From Cetorhinus maximus (Eukaryota): DNA of 64,000 bases. The notes beneath the pieces were generated by a model. It was not told where the DNA came from. It ran no database searches and saw only the letters and a program-made list of their open reading frames with translations. The position numbers were made by a program, and so were the translations under genes. This document shows, piece by piece, positions 8,836 to 63,702 of this stretch (positions are counted from its first letter, which is position 1; each line of letters opens with the position of its first letter). The DNA lies in contig NW_027596508.1 of the NCBI RefSeq assembly GCF_964194155.1, positions 186,001 to 250,000 of the forward strand, written 5' to 3'.

Positions 8836-9504
8836 ATGACTGATACTGCAGCCGCCGAAACGGCTCCTCCAGCCGCCACCGCTCAAGTCAAACCTCCCAA
8901 GAAGAAGAAGGCGGCTTCCCGATCGAAGGCAGCCGGTCCCAAGTTAGGCGAACAGATCCTCAAGATTGTGGCGGGTTGCAGCGATCGCAAGGGGATGTCC
9001 CTGGCCGCGATAAAGAAAGCTTTGTCTGGCAGCGGTGTCGATGTGGGGAAGCTCGGCTCCCAGATCAGGCTAAGTATCAGGAGGAAGGTGGAGAGCGGCT
9101 CCCTGGTGCAGGTAAAGGGACAGGGCGCCTCCGGCTCCTTCAAAATCCCTAAGAAGGAATCCCAGGGGAAAGTGGGAAAGAAGGAGAAGAAACCAACAGC
9201 CAAGAAATCTTTAGTAAAGAAACCAGCGGCCAAGAAGGTGAAAACAAAGAAACCAGCAGCTAAGAAATCTCCAGCCAGGAAAGTAGCAGCCAAGAAATCC
9301 CCAGCGAAGAAAGCAACAGTCAAGAAAACAAGCAGCAAGAAGGCGGCAACTCCAAAAAAGGCGGTGAAGAAAGCAGCGCTGAAGAAAAAATCTCCCGTCA
9401 AGAAGGTCACGGGCGGAAAGGCTTTAAAAAAAGTGGATAAATCGAAGGCCAAACCCAAAGTGAAAGCAGCAAAGGCTAAGAAAGCAGCGCCAGGAAAGAA
9501 GTGA
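8836..9504 (+). CDS. H1: Histone H1 (linker histone, replication-dependent type), 222 aa
   Basis: Globular domain ending VQVKGQGASGSFK, Lys/Ala/Pro-rich C-tail with SPxK/TPKK motifs, intronless, 3' stem-loop at 9541. Confidence 0.97.
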   Translation: MTDTAAAETAPPAATAQVKPPKKKKAASRSKAAGPKLGEQILKIVAGCSDRKGMSLAAIKKALSGSGVDVGKLGSQIRLSIRRKVESGSLVQVKGQGASGSFKIPKKESQGKVGKKEKKPTAKKSLVKKPAAKKVKTKKPAAKKSPARKVAAKKSPAKKATVKKTSSKKAATPKKAVKKAALKKKSPVKKVTGGKALKKVDKSKAKPKVKAAKAKKAAPGKK

Positions 9505-9540: not shown

Positions 9541-9556
9541 GGCTCTTCTCAGAGCC
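9541..9556 (+). terminator. Histone 3' stem-loop of H1, with U7 HDE-like AAAGAGCTG at ~9573
   Basis: GGCTCT-TCTC-AGAGCC preceded by CAAA. Confidence 0.95.
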
Positions 9557-10324
9557 GCCCACGTCTCTCAGGAAAGAGCTGATCCCCGAATCAAATGTCC
9601 CTCTCCCGGCGCTGGGAGCAGGTTTCACACTGAAATGATTTATATTAAATTGAAAATTCCCGGTATCTCACTGACATGCACTATACCCATCCCCTCCCCC
9701 ACTCTGTAATAAAACAGCGGGGTCCGTGCCCCATTGTAACTGGGGATTTGTGCAGCTGCTCTGTCAGTTTCTGCTCCTTCCCTTTTCACAGATTCAGGGT
9801 GTGTGTAAGACAGTTACCCGGGCGGAGAAACCCCGCGTTACAACTCAAAGCCCAACACATGAGTTTGTCTAATTCAGCTGGAGTGAGGTGTCGGTAAACT
9901 GCTGAACCCGCCTGGAGGGGAGGTGTGTGGGGATAGAACAGAAGCTGGGAGTGAAGTGGAAATAGGCGGATTTGACAGCATATAGTGTATGTACTTGGGC
10001 GGGAATATTACTGAATTTTAATTGTAAAGCTCTTTATTTAAAAGTTGCGGGTTTTTAGAACCGTTTAATTTGAAGCTCCAATCTATAAGCTTTGTGCCGA
10101 GCGCTGTGTTAACTTCCATTGTCGATAATTTAAAAACAAAGTCGTTTCTAGCAGGGAGGAGGCGGAGTTGGATTATCATAGACATTCCTCTGTTCTGTCT
10201 GTCACTCAGTCTCCTCCCCGCCCCGCCTCTCACTCTCTGCCCCTTTCTCAGTCAGGTCGGGGCGGGCTGTATAAAAGAAGAACCGAAACAGCTGATTTCT
10301 CATATTCTGCAGCGCTCTGAGTGA

Positions 10325-10645
<321 letters not shown>

Positions 10646-10680: not shown

Positions 10681-10696
10681 GGCTCTTTTCAGAGCC
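10681..10696 (+). terminator. Histone 3' stem-loop of H4
   Basis: GGCTCTTTTCAGAGCC followed by ACCCA and a purine-rich HDE. Confidence 0.97.
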
Positions 10697-11519
10697 ACCC
10701 ACCGCCTCACAGAGAGAGCAGAAACCTGGGAGCGGGAGCTGGGATGGGCTGTGATCGGGAATGTTAGTGTCTGATTTGTTCTGGCGGGGAATGTACTGAG
10801 AATCTCAGTTTGCTCGTTGTTTATTTACCCGGATGGCACATTCTGTACTGACACTGAAAAGTCTCTCCACTGCTTCACATTTCCGAAAGGTTTTGTTCTA
10901 GATGAATAATGGGTCGGATAGTAATGACAGGATCCGGCGGTTCCTCTGACATCAGCCGTTCAATCCGTCAGTGGAGTTGAGGTTACAATCAGATCAACCA
11001 TAATCTCACTGAATGGCGGAACAGGCTCGATGGACTGAGTGGCCTCCTCCTCCTATTCCCAATATTCGCACGGATGTCCGTCAAGACTCAGACCGGAAAC
11101 AGGGGGAGCTTCGAGCCGCTCCCGTTCCCGCTCTTTATCGGAATGAACAGCCCAGAATGAGGGCAATGGGAAGGGGTCTGATGCCCCCAGCACCGTTTCG
11201 ATTTTATTACCCATTCCAGCCCTCTAAGCGAGCGGCGATTTTAAAGGTTGGTTGTGCTGTATGGAGCAATGTTCAATTATTATTATATTAACAATTCAGT
11301 TATTGCCTGGGAAACTCAGCACTGACTTTACACAGTTCAAACAACAGACTGGTGTTTCTGTCCAAAAATGAGCAGATTCACCAGGATGATGCGGGGTTTA
11401 CAAATTGCCGGGTCAGGTTACATGAACTGGAATTTCATTGGGGTTAGGAAATAGTGAGTGAGTGTGAAAAATGGTATTTATAATTTTCAAAAAAGGGAAG
11501 AACGAAGTCTATTGTCGAG

Positions 11520-11770
11520 ACGGGAAACGGCTGTAAAAAAAGGCGGAATTTTTAAATGGACAATTAAAAACAACTCGACCAATGAGGACCTGAGCTGCCA
11601 GGGATTAATTCATTGGTTCGATTTTGGACGCAACTGCCTGGGCGTAAGGCTGCAGCCAATTACTGTTCGGGGCGGTTCCTCACAGAGTCTAAAAAGGCGG
11701 ATTGTCGAGCAGATTGTATTAATAGTCCTTGTAACTCTGACTGGTGAATCTGTTCAGAAAATGGTCAGGA
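11520..11770 (+). pseudogene. H3 promoter, 5' UTR and first 3 codons only (body deleted)
   Basis: Colinear with the reverse complement of 62394-62650, the intact H3 upstream region and ATGGCCAGGA; here ATGGTCAGGA. Confidence 0.92.
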
Positions 11771-11878
11771 GTAACTCTCCTTCCTCGACTTTCGCCGCTT
11801 CTTGCCGCCCTTTGCTACCGGTTTCTTTAAGGCTTTCTTGGCTCCCTTCTTGGGAGCTGGTTTCTTCTCATCAACCAT
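11765..11878 (-). pseudogene. Truncated H2B: N-terminal tail only, [37 protein letters not shown] (37 aa)
   Basis: Near-identical to the 5' end of H2B at 59090; stop TGA supplied by the fused H3 sequence; H2B promoter lies at 11880-12070. Confidence 0.93.
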
Positions 11879-12506
11879 CTTCAGTTTCAGACACAGAAAT
11901 AAACCAAACCCCTTCCGAGCGCCGATTAAATAGACAGTCTCCCAGATCTATGTTAATGAAGGATTGGGAAAAGATGACTCTGAATGGACAGTTTAAAGGC
12001 GGAACCAGCCTCTAAGTATATAATTTCAGGATTGGATATGGAAACAGGCCAATCAGATTGTGATTTCTCGCCCCCACTCCTCCTCCCGACCCGTCATCAG
12101 CCCATTTACTTTGGTCAGGAAATACATTTTACAAAGACTCTCTCCAGCCCCAGTTCCACAGTGTTTTACTATACATCGGGGAATGTCGCCTGATTGTTTT
12201 GCGAGGGTCCGTTCTCCACAGAGAGAGACTATACGGGAAAGCGGGATGCCATCTGTAACAGAGAGCCCCTGATAATATGTGCGAGTGTGGGATTTACTCA
12301 CTCTGATACTGTGAATGAGTTTGGGATTTATTCACTGTTTGTAAGGCCGTGCTACAGTGAGAGAGTCTGGGATTCATTCTGTGCTTGTCAGTCTCTGGGA
12401 CTGAAAGTGATTGTTGCTGTCGTTCTGTGTCTGACTGTGATAGTGTTTGAGACTCATTGTGCATCTGTCAGTTAGCGGTGCCTGTGAGTGAGTGGGGCTT
12501 TCATTC

Positions 12507-35301: not shown

Positions 35302-35373
35302 AGCAGAGTTGCGCAGCGGAAGCGTGCTGGGCCCATAACCCAGAGGTCAATGGATCGAAACCATTCTCTGCTA
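35302..35373 (+). tRNA. tRNA-iMet (CAT), variant, possibly functional
   Basis: 72 nt, 3 differences from the vertebrate initiator tRNA as recalled; A1:U72, three G:C pairs in the anticodon stem, GATCGAAA T-loop, T-tract downstream. Confidence 0.88.
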
Positions 35374-41117: not shown

Positions 41118-43084
41118 AGCTGCCCCTTTCAGCATCTGGCACTGAACGTGTGTTGAGAATTATTGTCTATCTGTCAGTCTCTGTCATTCAGTATATGTGA
41201 CTGAGTATGGGATTCATTATATAACATTCAGTCTCTGGGATTGTTTACGTTTTGATTCATTCGGTGCAAATTTTCAGCTCAGTTACAGGCCACTGATGTG
41301 GTAGCTATTAAGCAAGCAATGTTTGTAAGTTATGGCCCATGTTAAATGTCTGTCACTGTGAACACATTTGTGAAAGATAATGTATCTTTCAACCTGCTAC
41401 TCGCTTGGGATGCGGGCGTAACTCAGGTTATACTGATCGATTTGATCTGTGACACTCAGTCTGATTCTGAGTAAGAATTTTGATATGGATGTAAAATGGA
41501 GATCAGTCTGGAACTGGCACAGTATTCTCAATCTGACATTGAACATTTAGGATTAGTATGAAAGTTACAGCTCAGTTCATACTCATCGAATTGATATTGT
41601 ATCTTTTTGTTTCATAAAACTGGAATTAAGGTTTGTATCTCAGGTTATACTTGCTTTCAGAATATCTCGCTCTGATAATGTACTTGAGTTTTGGATTTGC
41701 ATCTAATGTATATGTCAGGACAGAGAATGGGAATTGACACTGCAATTTATAAACCCGTGATGTGTGCAAATATTGGACTGGTACTTCACATGAATCTCAG
41801 AGTATATTATTCAGGTTAATTCGGTAAACTTGAAACTGACACCGTTGTCTCCGTTTTATCTGATATTTAAATGTTGATATGGAAACAGCGTCTGTCTCTC
41901 CTGCGCTGTTTGATTGATGGATTGAAAATATCACACTGGAACTGATGACCTGCCTGTGTCTCTATGCCGTGTCAGTTATAAAGTACGTACTGTGTGAGAG
42001 GAGCTGGCGGGAATCTTCATTCTAACTTGGCTGGTGGAAACATCACAATTATTCCGGTGCCTTCATTTATTTGCCTGTATATTTTAGAATATAGAGTATA
42101 TTTTTGAACTCAAGTGCAACTGAGGTTGAAGACACCGATTCCTTTAGATTAATCTGTCTATTAATAATCATTATGAACGGGTTGAGAGGCTGTAGCTCTA
42201 ATTGGATACCCTGTTCTCAATCAAATTCCTAACCAATCGGACAGCCAGGGAGAAGAAATTGGAAGTTTGCATTGGCTTACATTTTCAAATTCGAAATGCC
42301 CGCCGATTTCAGTACAGGAAAAATACAAAATAACTGAACGCCAGTTTGAATGTGTTAGTCTCTTATCTGTAACCGGCGGTAATAAGACCCCGTTCAGCAA
42401 TTTAAATCAGCTCAAATCAGTGGAAAAGCAAAAACGTATAGATTACCAAACAACTCCTTCACACAGACTTCACGGGGATTGAGAAATGCGGCTGATTTCT
42501 GATCCTCTCCATTAAAAGCGGCCGGGAATGTTACAACAGGGAGTGCGGAAAGAATCCCCGACACCAAACCGCCTGGGACAGGCAGCTTTGTGTCCGGAGA
42601 ATAGGGAGACCGGGGGGAGGGGGGAAGGGGACGGGTGCAGATCTGAAACCGCAGAAATGGACTCAGGTTCTGTGAGTGCTCAACTCTCACTGATTCCGGC
42701 CTCTGGGAAAACTGCGGAATAAACAGATCAGCCCGAACATGTCCGCTCCGTTTCCGAGTTTACTCTGTTCCTGGAGCGGCGCTCAGATCACCCGAGAGTA
42801 AAAACAAAGCATTTAATGCACCAGTCGTGACATTTTTCATAGTTTTCATGAATGTACCGGGACAAACTCGATATTTATGACTATTAAATATTTATGAAAA
42901 TGTCGACTTTGACTCTGTCTTTCAATTCTTCAGTTCATTAAAGCGGAAGATGTGGGAGCAGAGAAACAGCGCAATGCAGAGAGGGGACTAAAAACACAAG
43001 TAAACAAATCAGAAACAGATAAATCCACCGTTACAATAACTCCATCTCCTGACAGTGAGCAGCCCTTTCAATGATCCTGTGAGT

Positions 43085-43130: not shown

Positions 43131-43532
<402 letters not shown>

Positions 43533-44411
43533 TCACAAACACTTTCACAGTGAATGAGGAAATCCCCTCAGATTCTCTTCTCTTATAGCTTCGGGAGGAA
43601 TGGTGCTGCGGGCATTGCTGATTGGTCACTTTGTGCTGCGTCTCATAATGTTATTCATATCACCAATCAGATATCTACTGAACTCACCAATCCGGAGACT
43701 CCACGGAGTGAGGGCGGAAAATAACGGCGCCAAATTTTGATATTTCAACCGATCTTTTTTCAAATTTTAAAAGCCCGCTAAATTTTTAAAAATAAATGAA
43801 AAAGAACGGACTTCTTAGAACATAGTACGAATTGGAAGTTTTAAAAATACGCGTCCCTGATGGGACTATTTCACATTTTATCCCATGTTCCAAATCGCTT
43901 TTACAATCCGTGATCCGGGGGTCAATCTCGATCCTTTGTGAAACCCTGTCAGCAGCCGCAGAAAGTCCCATTTACATCGTTCTGCAAACGGACGGTATAT
44001 TGTAGATATTTATGACAGACAAAACTGACCATTTTTGCCAGCGTTGAGACTGAAGGTTGCTGCACAACCGGGGCTGATAGGAAATGAACTGATCAATGAT
44101 TGAGACCAAACTCGACTAGAACTGGAAACTGACGCATTTGCTTCTATTCTCTCTCTCTCCAAAACCAGGGAAAGGGGCCAAATATTAACGCGTCTTAAAA
44201 GAAAGCGCCGAGGGTGATCGGCAAGTCATTAATTGATGAGGCATTATTAACCTGACTCAATAATTGAACGAGGGTTAAATCTACATCACCGAGAATCGCT
44301 GTGATTGAAACAAAAAGAAAATAACAATTTGATAATTCAAAATTCTTCACAGTAAAAATCATAACTTTAGAAGTGGAGCAATCGTATAGCTTTTTCAGAG
44401 AGATTGTGGGT

Positions 44412-44427
44412 GGCTCTTAAAAGAGCC
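44412..44427 (-). terminator. Histone 3' stem-loop of H2B
   Basis: Reverse complement GGCTCTTTTAAGAGCC. Confidence 0.96.
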
Positions 44428-44464
44428 GTTGTGTTTCTGGTGTTTTTCAGTGCATTGTGGGGTT

Positions 44465-44842
44465 TTACTTGGAGCTGGTGTACTTGGTCACCGCCTTTGT
44501 CCCTTCCGACACGGCGTGCTTGGCCAGTTCCCCGGGCAGCAGCAGGCGCACGGCGGTCTGGATCTCCCGGGAGCTGATGGTGCTGCGCTTGTTGTAATGG
44601 GCCAGGCGGGAAGCCTCACCCGCGATGCGCTCGAAAATATCGCTCACGAACGAGTTCATGATGCTCATGGCCTTGGAGGAGATGCCGGTGTCGGGGTGAA
44701 CCTGCTTCATCACTTTGTAGATGTAGATGGAGTAACTCTCCTTCCTCGACTTTCGCCGCTTCTTGCCGCCCTTTCCTGCCGGTTTACTCACCGCTTTCTT
44801 GGCGCCCTTCTTAGCAACTGGTTTCTTCTTCTCTTCAGCCAT
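44465..44842 (-). CDS. H2B: Histone H2B (125 aa, starts MAEEKKKPV)
   Basis: H2B fold to KYTSSK; true ATG at 44842 lies downstream of TATA and the octamer-like ATTAGCAT (44920-44927). Confidence 0.98.
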
Positions 44843-59089: not shown

Positions 59090-59464
59090 ATGGTTGATGA
59101 CAAGAAACCAGCTTCTAAGAAGGGAGGCAAGAAAGCCTTAAAGAAACCGGTAGCGAAGGGCGGCAAGAAGCGGCGAAAGTCGAGGAAGGAGAGTTACGCC
59201 ATCTACATCTACAAAGTGATGAAGCAGGTTCACCCCGACACCGGCATCTCCTCCAAGGCCATGAGCATCATGAACTCGTTCGTGAGCGATATTTTCGAGC
59301 GCATCGCGGGTGAGGCTTCCCGCCTGGCCCATTACAACAAGCGCAGCACCATCAGCTCCCGGGAGATCCAGACCGCCGTGCGCCTGCTGCTGCCCGGGGA
59401 ACTGGCCAAGCACGCCGTGTCGGAAGGGACAAAGGCGGTGACCAAGTACACCAGCTCCAAGTAA
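59090..59464 (+). CDS. H2B: Histone H2B (124 aa, starts MVDDKKPAS)
   Basis: H2B fold; CCAAT at 58982, octamer-like CTCATTAGCAT ending 59019, TATTTAA ~59038. Confidence 0.98.
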
Positions 59465-59503
59465 AACCCCAGAACTGACTGAAAAACACATTCACAACAC
59501 AAC

Positions 59504-59519
59504 GGCTCTTTTAAGAGCC
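59504..59519 (+). terminator. Histone 3' stem-loop of H2B
   Basis: GGCTCTTTTAAGAGCC. Confidence 0.96.
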
Positions 59520-60780
59520 ACTCACAATCTCTCTGAAAAAGCTATATGATTTCATTACTTCTAATTTATGATTTTACTATGAAGCATTTAGAATTGTGAA
59601 ATTTTTATTTTGATCACGTTTCAGTCACAGGTTCTCGGCAATGTAAATTTAACACTCGTTCAATTGTTGGGCCTCGTTAATGATGCCCCATAAATTAATG
59701 TCTTGCCGCTCACCCTCTGCGCTTTGCTTTAAGACGCGTCATATTCGACCCCTTTCCCTGGTTTTGGAGTGCGCGCGAATAGAGCGCAAATTCTTCTGGT
59801 TCCAATTCGGTTCAAGTTTGGCCTCAATAATCGATCAGTTCATTTCCTATAAGCACCGGTTGTGTAGCAACCTTCAGTCTCAACGCTAGCAAATTTACTC
59901 CAAGTATGTTTAATTTTGGCTGTCACAAATATCTACAATATACCGTCTATCAGCAGAACGATGTAAATGGCACTTTCAGCCGGCTGCTAAGAAGGTTTCA
60001 TGACGGATCGAGATTACCTCGAATTGCTGCCGGATTCTTAAAGCGAATCTGAAATTTAAAATGGATAAAATGTGAAATAGTCCCATCAGGGAAGGACATT
60101 TGTAAAACTTTGTCGTCAGACCGTGTTCACTATTAACTGGTTTTCTATATGAAATGTATTTCTTGTTTTACAAATATATCGGCGGTAATTTCGACGTCGA
60201 ATAAAAAAATAGATTGCGTAAATTTGCGCCGTTATTTTCGACTTGTTTTCAGATACACATAAACCCAGACAGAAAATCAGAAACTGAAATATACAAAAAA
60301 CTGCAGTCCAGGGAAAGAGAGAGAGAGATGAAGAGAATGTTACATTCGAATACTAAATACTGAATAACCATTTTCAATTAGTACTCGAAACGTCAACTTT
60401 CTTCCTCTCCGATGAGCTTTTCCAGGTATTTTTGTTTTAGTTTCAGATTTCCAGCATCAGCAGTATTTTGCTTTTATCCAATTAGTACTGTGTTCGATCA
60501 GTTCTTTTTTGGCTTTTTTTTTTTACAAATTTGGCGGGCTTTTAAAATTTGAAAAAAAAGCTCGGTTGGAATCTCAAAATTTGGCGCTGGATTTTCCGCC
60601 CTCCCTCCGTGGAGTCTCCGGGTTGGTGAGTTCAGTAGATATCTGATTGGTGATATGAACAACATTATGTGACGCTGCACAAAATGACCTATCAGCAATG
60701 CCCGCCGCACCATTCCTCCCGAAGCTATAAGAGAAGCGAATGCGAGCGCATTTCCTCATTCACTGTGAAAGTGTTTTTGA

Positions 60781-61182
<402 letters not shown>

Positions 61183-61212
61183 AGCGGCCATTCTTTAATC
61201 TAATACCCCAAA

Positions 61213-61228
61213 GGCTCTTTTCAGAGCC
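61213..61228 (+). terminator. Histone 3' stem-loop of H2A
   Basis: GGCTCTTTTCAGAGCC then ACCCA. Confidence 0.96.
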
Positions 61229-61947
61229 ACCCACAGAGTCTGTGAAAGGGTGAACTATTGACTACCGCTACGTGCCGAATTTCAGTAATGGTGAAGCGTT
61301 TCTAATGATCCGCAACGACAACCAACTCGTATCAAAAGAGAAATTACATTTCCACCCGAGTGGTTCGGGACTGGAATGCACTCCCTGGAAGTAGTGGAGG
61401 CAGGTTCAATAGAGGCAGTCAAGAGGGTATTAGCTGATTATTTGAATATAAACAACGTGCAGGGATGGGGCGGGGTGAAAGCTTTCGGTCATAACACTCT
61501 TTTGGAGAGCAGATGCAGGCACCGAAGGGCCGAATGGCCTCCCGTGCTGTGCAAATTGGTTGATTCTATGATAAATCTGTGCACCGGAGGGATACACGTT
61601 TGTTGCTCAGGGCGTTGCCTTTATTGACTTCATGAGCACTGACTTGTAACCCGCAGATCACTCTTTGCCCGGGATTGATGTCTGCTCGCAGTATTTAATA
61701 CATTATCAGCGCCGCATTTATTGGAAGTATCCTAGAGCACTAAGGTGACCACATTCCCAATTTTATGCTTAAATTAAGACACCATTTGCGCTACAACTTA
61801 CAACTGCATTGTCTGTGATTATCAACCCCAAAAGAGGTTTGTAGACAAGAAAAAATAAACTGATGGAAGGAGGTAAATGGTAACTTCGCGATGTCTAAGT
61901 GCTGGAGTGGTCAACAGGAGATCACAGCTTTCATTTGCCGATTTAGT

Positions 61948-61963
61948 GGCTCTTAAAAGAGCC
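61948..61963 (-). terminator. Histone 3' stem-loop of H3
   Basis: Reverse complement GGCTCTTTTAAGAGCC. Confidence 0.96.
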
Positions 61964-61992
61964 TTTGTTGCACTTGGTGCTGAAGCCTGGTT

Positions 61993-62427
<435 letters not shown>

Positions 62428-63331
62428 TCAGCTGCAAGAACTATTAAGACAAACTGCACTGCAACTCGCCTTTTTAAACTCTGTGAGGAACCGCCCCGAA
62501 CAGTAATTGGCTGCAGCCTTCCGCCCAGGCAGTTTTATCCAAAATCTAACCAATGAACTAATCCCTGGCTGAGTTGCCAGGTCTCCATTGGTCGAGTAGT
62601 TTTTAATCGCTCATTTCAAAAATTCCGCCTTTATTTCCAGCCGTTTACCGCCTCGACATCAGAAGACTTTGTTCCTTCATTTCTTAAAATTATAAATACC
62701 ATTTTTACTGCAAATCATTATTCCCTAACCCGAATGAAATTCCTGTTCATTAAACCTATTCCGACAATTTTTAAACCCGGCATCATCCTGGTGAACCTGC
62801 ACATTTTTGGACAGAAACACCAGTCTGTTGTTTGAACTGTGTAAAGTCAGTGCTGGATTTCCGAGGCAAAAATTGAAGGACTGTCCATTGCTCCCTACAG
62901 CACAACCAACCCTTAAAATCGCCGCTCGCTTAGAGGTCTGGAGTGGGTAATAAAATGGAACCGGTGCTGGGGGCTTCACACCCCTTCCCATTGCCCTCAT
63001 TCTGGGCAGTTCATGACTATAAAGAGCGGGGAAAGGGATAATAAACAACGATTAAATCGAGTTACTTAGTACATCCTCCAGAACCCCGGAACAAATCAGG
63101 CACTAATATAAATGAAAAATACTGCACATGCTGGAAATCTGAATTAAAAACAGAAAATGCTGGAAACCTCCGTAGGTCTCACAGAATCTGTGGATAGAAA
63201 AGAGTTAGCGTTTCTAATCCGTTTCACTCTTCGTTAGAGCTCTCTTTTCTGTTTCAGACAGTAACATTCCCGATCACAGCCAATCCCAATTCCCGTTCCC
63301 AGGTCTCTGCTCTCTCTGTGAGGTGGTGGGT

Positions 63332-63347
63332 GGCTCTGAGAAGAGCC
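63332..63347 (-). terminator. Histone 3' stem-loop of H4
   Basis: Reverse complement GGCTCTTCTCAGAGCC. Confidence 0.96.
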
Positions 63348-63381
63348 TTTGTTGTGTGTTCGGTAGAAAGGGTCGAGTTGT

Positions 63382-63702
<321 letters not shown>

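Follow-up and report, generated by a model that had tools for sequence, protein, structure and literature searches.

A head-to-head H3/H2B deletion remnant, probably a neutral passenger of block duplications in a histone cluster of Cetorhinus maximus

The window analysed here, a stretch of 64,000 nucleotides from Cetorhinus maximus, contains three histone units: A, with genes for H1 and H4 and a remnant behind them; B, an H2A-H2B pair; and C, inverted and intact. What the remnant retains is an H3 promoter and, facing it, an H2B promoter, with 10 bases of H3 coding sequence and 37 of the 124 H2B codons between them and no stem-loop. Why should such a pair of promoters, pointing at each other, occur 44 times in one genome: do they make something that the cell uses, or have they been carried along by their neighbours? 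We favour the second answer and give a probability of roughly 0.8 to the reading that the remnant is a deletion pseudogene amplified 44-fold as a likely neutral, functionless passenger of block duplications. One old deletion of ~3 kb in an H1-H4-H3-H2A-H2B unit would have left the H3 and H2B remnants face to face, probably once only and before the block was amplified, through a double-strand-break join with little or no microhomology. The remnant would then have travelled within a repeatedly duplicated block that has working histone genes, with selection presumably acting on H1, H4 and the block's other units and not on the remnant itself.

Structure of the remnant and origin of the join

Self-alignment of the window bears out the head-on H3/H2B join that a sequence-only reading of this DNA had proposed: 11120-11770 resembles the reverse complement of 62394-63038, the upstream region and start of the unit C H3 gene, at 83%, and 11768-12259 resembles the reverse complement of 59200-58736, the 5' end and promoter of the unit C H2B gene, at 77%; the letters of the junction (11770/11771), read in the window, are those that had been given. 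On the plus strand, the H3 promoter and leader (11520-11760) comprise three CCAAT boxes, a GC box and a TATA element at 11688-11695 that has become TCTAAAAA, and are followed by the first 10 bases of the H3 coding sequence (11761-11770), a configuration found in 44 copies. On the minus strand lie a 37-codon H2B stub of the MVDEKK class (11768-11878) and the H2B leader and promoter (11879-12070), in which the TATA element and the proximal CCAAT are kept, the middle CCAAT is lost and the octamer (11950-11957) is broken in the window. All three motif changes named by the sequence-only reading, those of the octamer and of one CCAAT among them, are present in the window copy. Its further statement that no 3' processing signals are left holds for histone stem-loops but not beyond them, as a plus-strand AATAAA hexamer, derived from the H2B leader and situated 20 bases beyond the H2B start codon on the antisense strand (11898-11903), occurs in 39 of 42 copies.

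Upstream of the remnant, the plus strand carries the first gene of the deleted unit, which encodes a histone H1 of 222 aa (8836-9504, stem-loop at 9541), and a conserved H4 gene (10334-10645, stem-loop at 10681; pN/pS 0.08 over the 44 copies); the H4-H3 spacer (10731-11519) served as neutral background, with 0.278 alleles per site. The H1 frame is open in 12 of 14 other copies checked and the H4 protein is unchanged in 36 of 42. Unit C, an intact inverted H4-H3-H2A-H2B unit (59090-63693), belongs to the same duplicated block as the remnant; its H2A and H2B genes stand in tandem and converge on H3, unlike amniote H2A-H2B pairs, which are divergent. Unit B (43131-44842, minus strand) pairs H2A with an H2B of the M[AV]EEKKK class and has no adjoining H3 or H4. 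About 700 bases past the 3' end of the unit B H2A there is a CCAAT-rich, promoter-like stretch without coding sequence (42050-42350); it is ~75% similar to a portion of the spacer between H4 and H3 in intact units and was amplified with the block. The idea that 42140-42320 is a second decapitated H3 promoter found no support. Genes for tRNA-Met(CAT) lie between histone units, at 35302-35373 in the window and at L031:8443-8514.

Is a deletion the right description of this lesion? The simplest origin, a deletion inside an intact H1-H4-H3-H2A-H2B unit, is supported by sequence comparison. Intact units with this gene order are present in the genome, and the leader and proximal promoter of the remnant H2B are closest to two of them, L062 (98%) and L069 (95%), the H1-bearing units at the cluster's two edges; the best matches of the remnant H3 promoter (91-92%) are other H1-linked units. 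The loss had been put at ~3.2 kb, and 3196 bases do lie between the equivalent points of unit C, although the value depends on the parent that is assumed: it is 2661-3196 bases in nine of ten measurable units and 1220 in the one lacking H2A, two further units having yielded no value. The promoter pattern places the true parent outside the intact genes, and a join between two unit types is a conceivable alternative origin.

The mode of joining had been described as end-joining at a 3-bp microhomology, GGA, shared by both parents. The deletion origin agrees with the same-order intact units and with the H2B promoters of the edge units; the microhomology is doubtful. Unit C reads GGC at the H2B side, and GGA sits in unit B, whose H2B is of a different class. 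Among 45 intact H2B genes of the stub's class, codon 37 encodes Ala in 43, Gly in one and Ser, which gives GGA, in one, whereas Ser occupies this codon in seven of ten genes of the other class. By chance, 3 bp or more would be shared at ~5% of random joins, and the junction may be blunt rather than based on microhomology. Both parents contain ATGGC; H2B is broken directly after this motif and H3 five bases further on. This placement, noticed post hoc, could be a hint of end-joining with a short insertion.

Lesions of other kinds are also found in the cluster. Partial units are frequent, either without the downstream H2A or with an extra H2A between H4 and H3, and there are truncated H2A or H1 genes and insertions between promoter and start codon. 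The loci L064, L065, L068, L116, L121, L122, L124, L125, L127, L128 and L059 belong together as units whose H2B is of a third type, divergent and ~91% like that of the window; in most of them an H2A stands between H4 and the H3 spacer, and several lack the usual H2A between H3 and H2B. Foreign sequence stands at the H2B 5' end of the seemingly intact units L075, L079, L087, L090, L104, L106 and L108, and the likewise seemingly intact L077, L082, L086 and L110 have insertions between the H3 promoter and the start codon. At L066:5240-5313, on another contig (C7), an H3 leader is left as an orphan, its coding sequence ending after the first 30 bases. The remnant is one such cluster lesion, which happened to predate the amplification of its block.

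Copies of the join and the block that carries them

How often does the join occur? A DNA search of the window's genome with the element returned 659 candidates, of which 40 were scored, and all 40 are full-length matches of 96-100% identity. A junction pattern with one mismatch allowed gave 47 genome hits (none for a control pattern); three are intact H3 starts and the other 44 are copies of the junction, 42 on contig C32 (8.89-21.21 Mb) and a single one each on C1068 and the contig of the window. A pattern for the remnant's H2B promoter gave 45 genome hits, the 44 junction copies and one further locus, L070; genome-wide, these 45 remnant loci are the only ones, and no intact gene shows this promoter class by that pattern.

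The element is retained at 44 of 45 loci. At the exception, L070, a second deletion (window-equivalent 11490-12015; L070:5566-5579) between two similar AT-rich stretches of ~10 bases has removed both promoter cores and the stub, so that the whole element is gone, with H1 and H4 in place and 99% identical to the window's. Other copies carry gross lesions of their own: at L071:4830-4915, start codon, leader and TATA of H2B have given way, with hardly any change in length, to a tRNA-Lys(CTT), called by ARAGORN at a lowered threshold; the stub of L043 is interrupted by ~355 bp of inserted sequence, and L044 has a 15-bp deletion in the leader.

The 43 loci on C32 are spaced at a median of 262 kb, 26 on the plus and 17 on the minus strand, and in 42 of them an inverted intact H3 follows 36-60 kb downstream. 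The order H1-H4-remnant is found in all 13 larger loci that hold the junction, and also in L061 and L071. Flanking DNA, transposon debris included, matches the window at 93-96% over positions 2288-29573, and for a stretch close to unit B, 33 of 40 scored matches show 90-100% identity. The shared flanks, the recurring unit B stretch and the inverted H3 indicate that what was amplified is a block of >50 kb and not the junction alone. Non-coding divergence among the copies averages 3.9%, which at a rate of 7e-10 per generation (PMC10587355) would correspond to about 28 million generations, a figure that reads only as ‘old’ and provides no date.

Could the junction be a product of misassembly? In favour of this, the contig of the window measures only 258 kb and matches several copies on C32 at 99.2-99.8%, and of the contig pieces from four DNA runs (32 listed of 1359) none spans the junction with 31 letters to either side. 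Against this, the 44 copies differ from each other by up to 6.5%, lie on both strands and carry their own mutations, insertions and deletions, from which it follows that the junction is real; the assembly artefact of which the sequence-only reading had warned is highly improbable. The stretch or part of it is present in 20 of 24 listed sequencing runs, from four organisms. Six runs that may be RNA contain 0.05-0.13 of its words, a share that carries no information on expression. One DNA run (X2) holds a contig identical over 11659-11771 and another (X7) a contig over 11938-12077 with three differences, so that organisms B and D have flanks of the remnant's unit type; in runs X6 and X7, every contig over 11689 carries the letter of the intact TATA.

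The surroundings of the copies are of interest in themselves. The histone cluster of C32 extends over ~12.6 Mb (8.7-21.4 Mb) and comprises 84 intact H3 starts as well as the >50 kb block in 43 copies. The H3 start pattern has 154 hits genome-wide, which include a tighter array on C39 with spacings mostly of 16-22 kb, and a genome search for H1 gave at least 40 matches. The exact H1 protein of the window has no entry in the protein collection searched, and among the 15 listed members of the H2B protein cluster, all 12 that bear species names are sharks or rays. The junction is unique and serves as a label for 45 copies of a duplicated block. It shows that these 12 Mb of histone genes have expanded through large-scale duplication and inversion, in the course of which the spacers drifted and coding sequences stayed at 97-100%. 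The remnant thereby offers a ready neutral clock for dating the amplification and for measuring gene conversion.

Promoters, selection and possible functions

Would the two facing promoters still fire? On the H3 side, the TATA element (TTTAAAA) is intact in seven of the 44 fused copies and lost in 37; all 54 intact promoters found by anchor keep it. CCAAT boxes 1 and 3 of H3 show no change in the scored columns of 42 copies (box 3 having been scored one base off). On the H2B side, the middle CCAAT is lost in all 42 copies, but 36 of them have kept TATA, 32 the octamer and 41 the proximal CCAAT, which is ancestral; the broken octamer, correctly reported for the window copy, is consequently a trait of the window's subfamily and not of the copies at large. 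Since TATA, octamer and proximal CCAAT are mostly kept, the minus-strand H2B promoter could fire in most copies. To judge by these motifs, it is the H3 promoter, the one that would be needed for antisense H2B RNA, that is damaged. Any transcription would likely be leftover read-through, yielding on the plus strand a short antisense RNA from the TATA-less H3 promoter and on the minus strand a message for the 37-codon H2B tail that lacks a stem-loop and would be unstable.

If the remnant had been put to use, it might be expected to change more slowly than the DNA around it. Variant alleles were counted over all 44 copies with replaced or misaligned stretches masked, the counts taking no account of shared descent or gene conversion. 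The element has 157 variant alleles at 551 sites, or 0.285 per site, compared with 0.276 in spacer and distal DNA (P 0.68), a test with ~81% power for a deficit of 20% and 33% for one of 10%; the H4 gene beside it has 0.115. In the stub, 11 synonymous and 24 nonsynonymous alleles correspond to a pN/pS of 0.71 (P 0.22 for a synonymous excess), and in 39 intact unit C copies the same 37 codons have 15 and 13 (0.28, P 0.0009), the direct contrast between the two being not significant (Fisher p 0.12). An unmasked run (stub pN/pS 0.89, Fisher p 0.015) was inflated by the aligner crossing the L071 tRNA replacement, hence the masked values are used; the unmasked multiple alignment of intact units was, owing to insertions, too noisy for rates, and only motif and codon tallies were taken from it. 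Promoter motifs vary at 0.98 of background in fused copies and at 0.65 in intact ones (contrast P 0.20), and as the intact motifs alone reach only P 0.10, this motif-level test is weak and constraint on a few promoter bases could be missed. That the remnant mutates as fast as the adjoining spacer DNA makes a functionless passenger the likely reading. The H4 promoter (10220-10333) stands apart with 0.64 alleles per site, about twice the neutral spacer, though H4 itself is conserved; gene conversion between H4 classes is the likely cause.

These data bear on a more attractive proposal, in which the facing promoters would produce antisense or double-stranded RNA against H2B 5' ends, to be turned into siRNAs or piRNAs that tune the supply of H2B, amplification having raised the dose. 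Here, the complementarity to a parent message that such a small-RNA source would need is given, the stub agreeing at 95-99% with the 5' ends of those intact H2B genes of its class that are full-length; the junction has 44 copies, in 39 of 42 the antisense strand has the AATAAA behind the stub, the three CCAAT boxes of the H3 promoter have for the most part been preserved together with its GC box, most promoter motifs apart from the H3 TATA are still present in the majority of copies, and histone antisense RNAs and piRNAs are known in Aedes from the part of one account compared here (PMC5416884). It speaks against the proposal that the promoter of the antisense strand is without TATA in 37 of 44 copies, that the element shows no excess conservation and that the stub has diverged from H2B at the spacer rate; moreover, the flanks are amplified equally, so that the copy number needs no selection on the element. 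We therefore hold it to be improbable. A broader version, in which the ~44 head-to-head pairs would supply antisense or double-stranded RNA to H2B 5' ends in time with the cell cycle, or serve as a bank of decoy promoters, with selection on the total dose rather than on single bases, gains only marginally in likelihood and stays a long shot. Against the passenger reading it may be said that drift could be borne by copies that are redundant and whose RNA acts by dosage. Were the antisense reading true, a vertebrate would have a dedicated antisense source for its replication-dependent histone messages. The functional importance of the remnant is probably slight. As an experiment of nature, it can be used to ask how double-stranded RNA is avoided where two histone promoters face each other.

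Might the decapitated promoters work as DNA instead, binding histone-promoter factors and so aiding H4 and H1 or seeding a histone locus body? With 42 fused and 84 intact H3 starts on C32, they make up a third of the H3-type promoters there, and their CCAAT boxes persist despite the loss of TATA. In Drosophila, according to the portion of the study compared (PMC7359574), the H3-H4 promoter stimulates formation of the histone locus body and copies compete for factors; that promoter differs, however, in being divergent. The motif rate of 0.98 of background given above tells against such a role, as does L070, where H1 and H4 persist at 99% identity without the element, and we consider it about as improbable as the tuning of H2B supply by small RNAs.

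A new protein is less probable still. It could be sought in the chance frame that opens at the H3 ATG (11761-12015, plus strand, antisense to the H2B stub) or in a basic H2B tail peptide of 37 residues. The frame had been reported as 84 codons long and is so in the window, but this length, likewise a trait of the window's subfamily, is kept in only eight of 44 copies (one of them without the ATG), the commonest being 80 codons (24 copies) and the remaining 12 ranging from 38 to 79; a frame of 80 or 84 codons with its ATG is thus found in 31 copies. The stub meets a stop behind codon 37 in most copies, although it continues to 72 aa in seven of 42, and some copies have early stops and frameshifts. 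A gene born de novo would have its frame kept by selection; here, 12 synonymous and 55 nonsynonymous alleles give the frame a pN/pS of 1.62 (0.71 in the stub), lengths spread from 38 to 84 codons, and one copy lacks the ATG. Furthermore, the 64-kb window contains 70 ATG frames of at least 80 codons, and, with the AATAAA at 11898, the message would end before the frame does.

Relation to known histone pseudogenes and small-RNA sources

Histone genes are subject to birth-and-death turnover. A search of mainly freely accessible literature brought up no description of the element or of the unit structure of a shark histone cluster. The nearest setting is the red stingray, whose chromosome 28 bears a histone gene cluster with tRNA loci (10.1101/2025.06.08.657570); as in that elasmobranch cluster, tRNA genes are interspersed here in a histone region of several megabases. 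The passages of the stingray account that were compared are silent on unit structure, duplicated blocks and deletion remnants, on which its supplementary tables could bear.

With respect to RNA, the remnant resembles the pseudogene sources of endo-siRNAs in mouse oocytes and rice, as presented in the part of the source compared (PMC2708354), in that a piece of a pseudogene lies in antisense orientation to a promoter and is the complement of its parent's message; unlike them, it is known from DNA alone, lacks a hairpin partner in its vicinity, offers only ~110 complementary bases and gives no indication of constraint. In Aedes aegypti, piRNAs derived from histone genes provide a precedent for antisense histone transcripts feeding a small-RNA pathway, but these small RNAs come from intact genes, mostly H4, and are mostly sense, with no dedicated fused locus in the account compared (PMC5416884).

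The closest likeness is to unprocessed histone pseudogenes and fragments of replication-dependent clusters. Such pseudogenes are ordinary in histone clusters, the human HIST1-4 clusters comprising 65 genes and 17 pseudogenes (10.1101/720235). The remnant shares their marks: it arose at the DNA level within a cluster, with promoter and neighbours kept and the latter under purifying selection, its coding capacity is disabled, and it appears released from purifying selection (0.285 against 0.276 alleles per site; direct stub contrast p 0.12). By the HGNC rule as quoted in 10.1101/720235, a pseudogene has at least 50% identity over 50% of the frame; with 37 of 124 H2B codons (30%), the remnant is a fragment. 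The 12-Mb, block-duplicated histone cluster that the remnant marks merits description; the element itself is ordinary in kind, differing from other histone pseudogenes in that a single lesion fuses two genes head to head and is present 44 times through block duplication.
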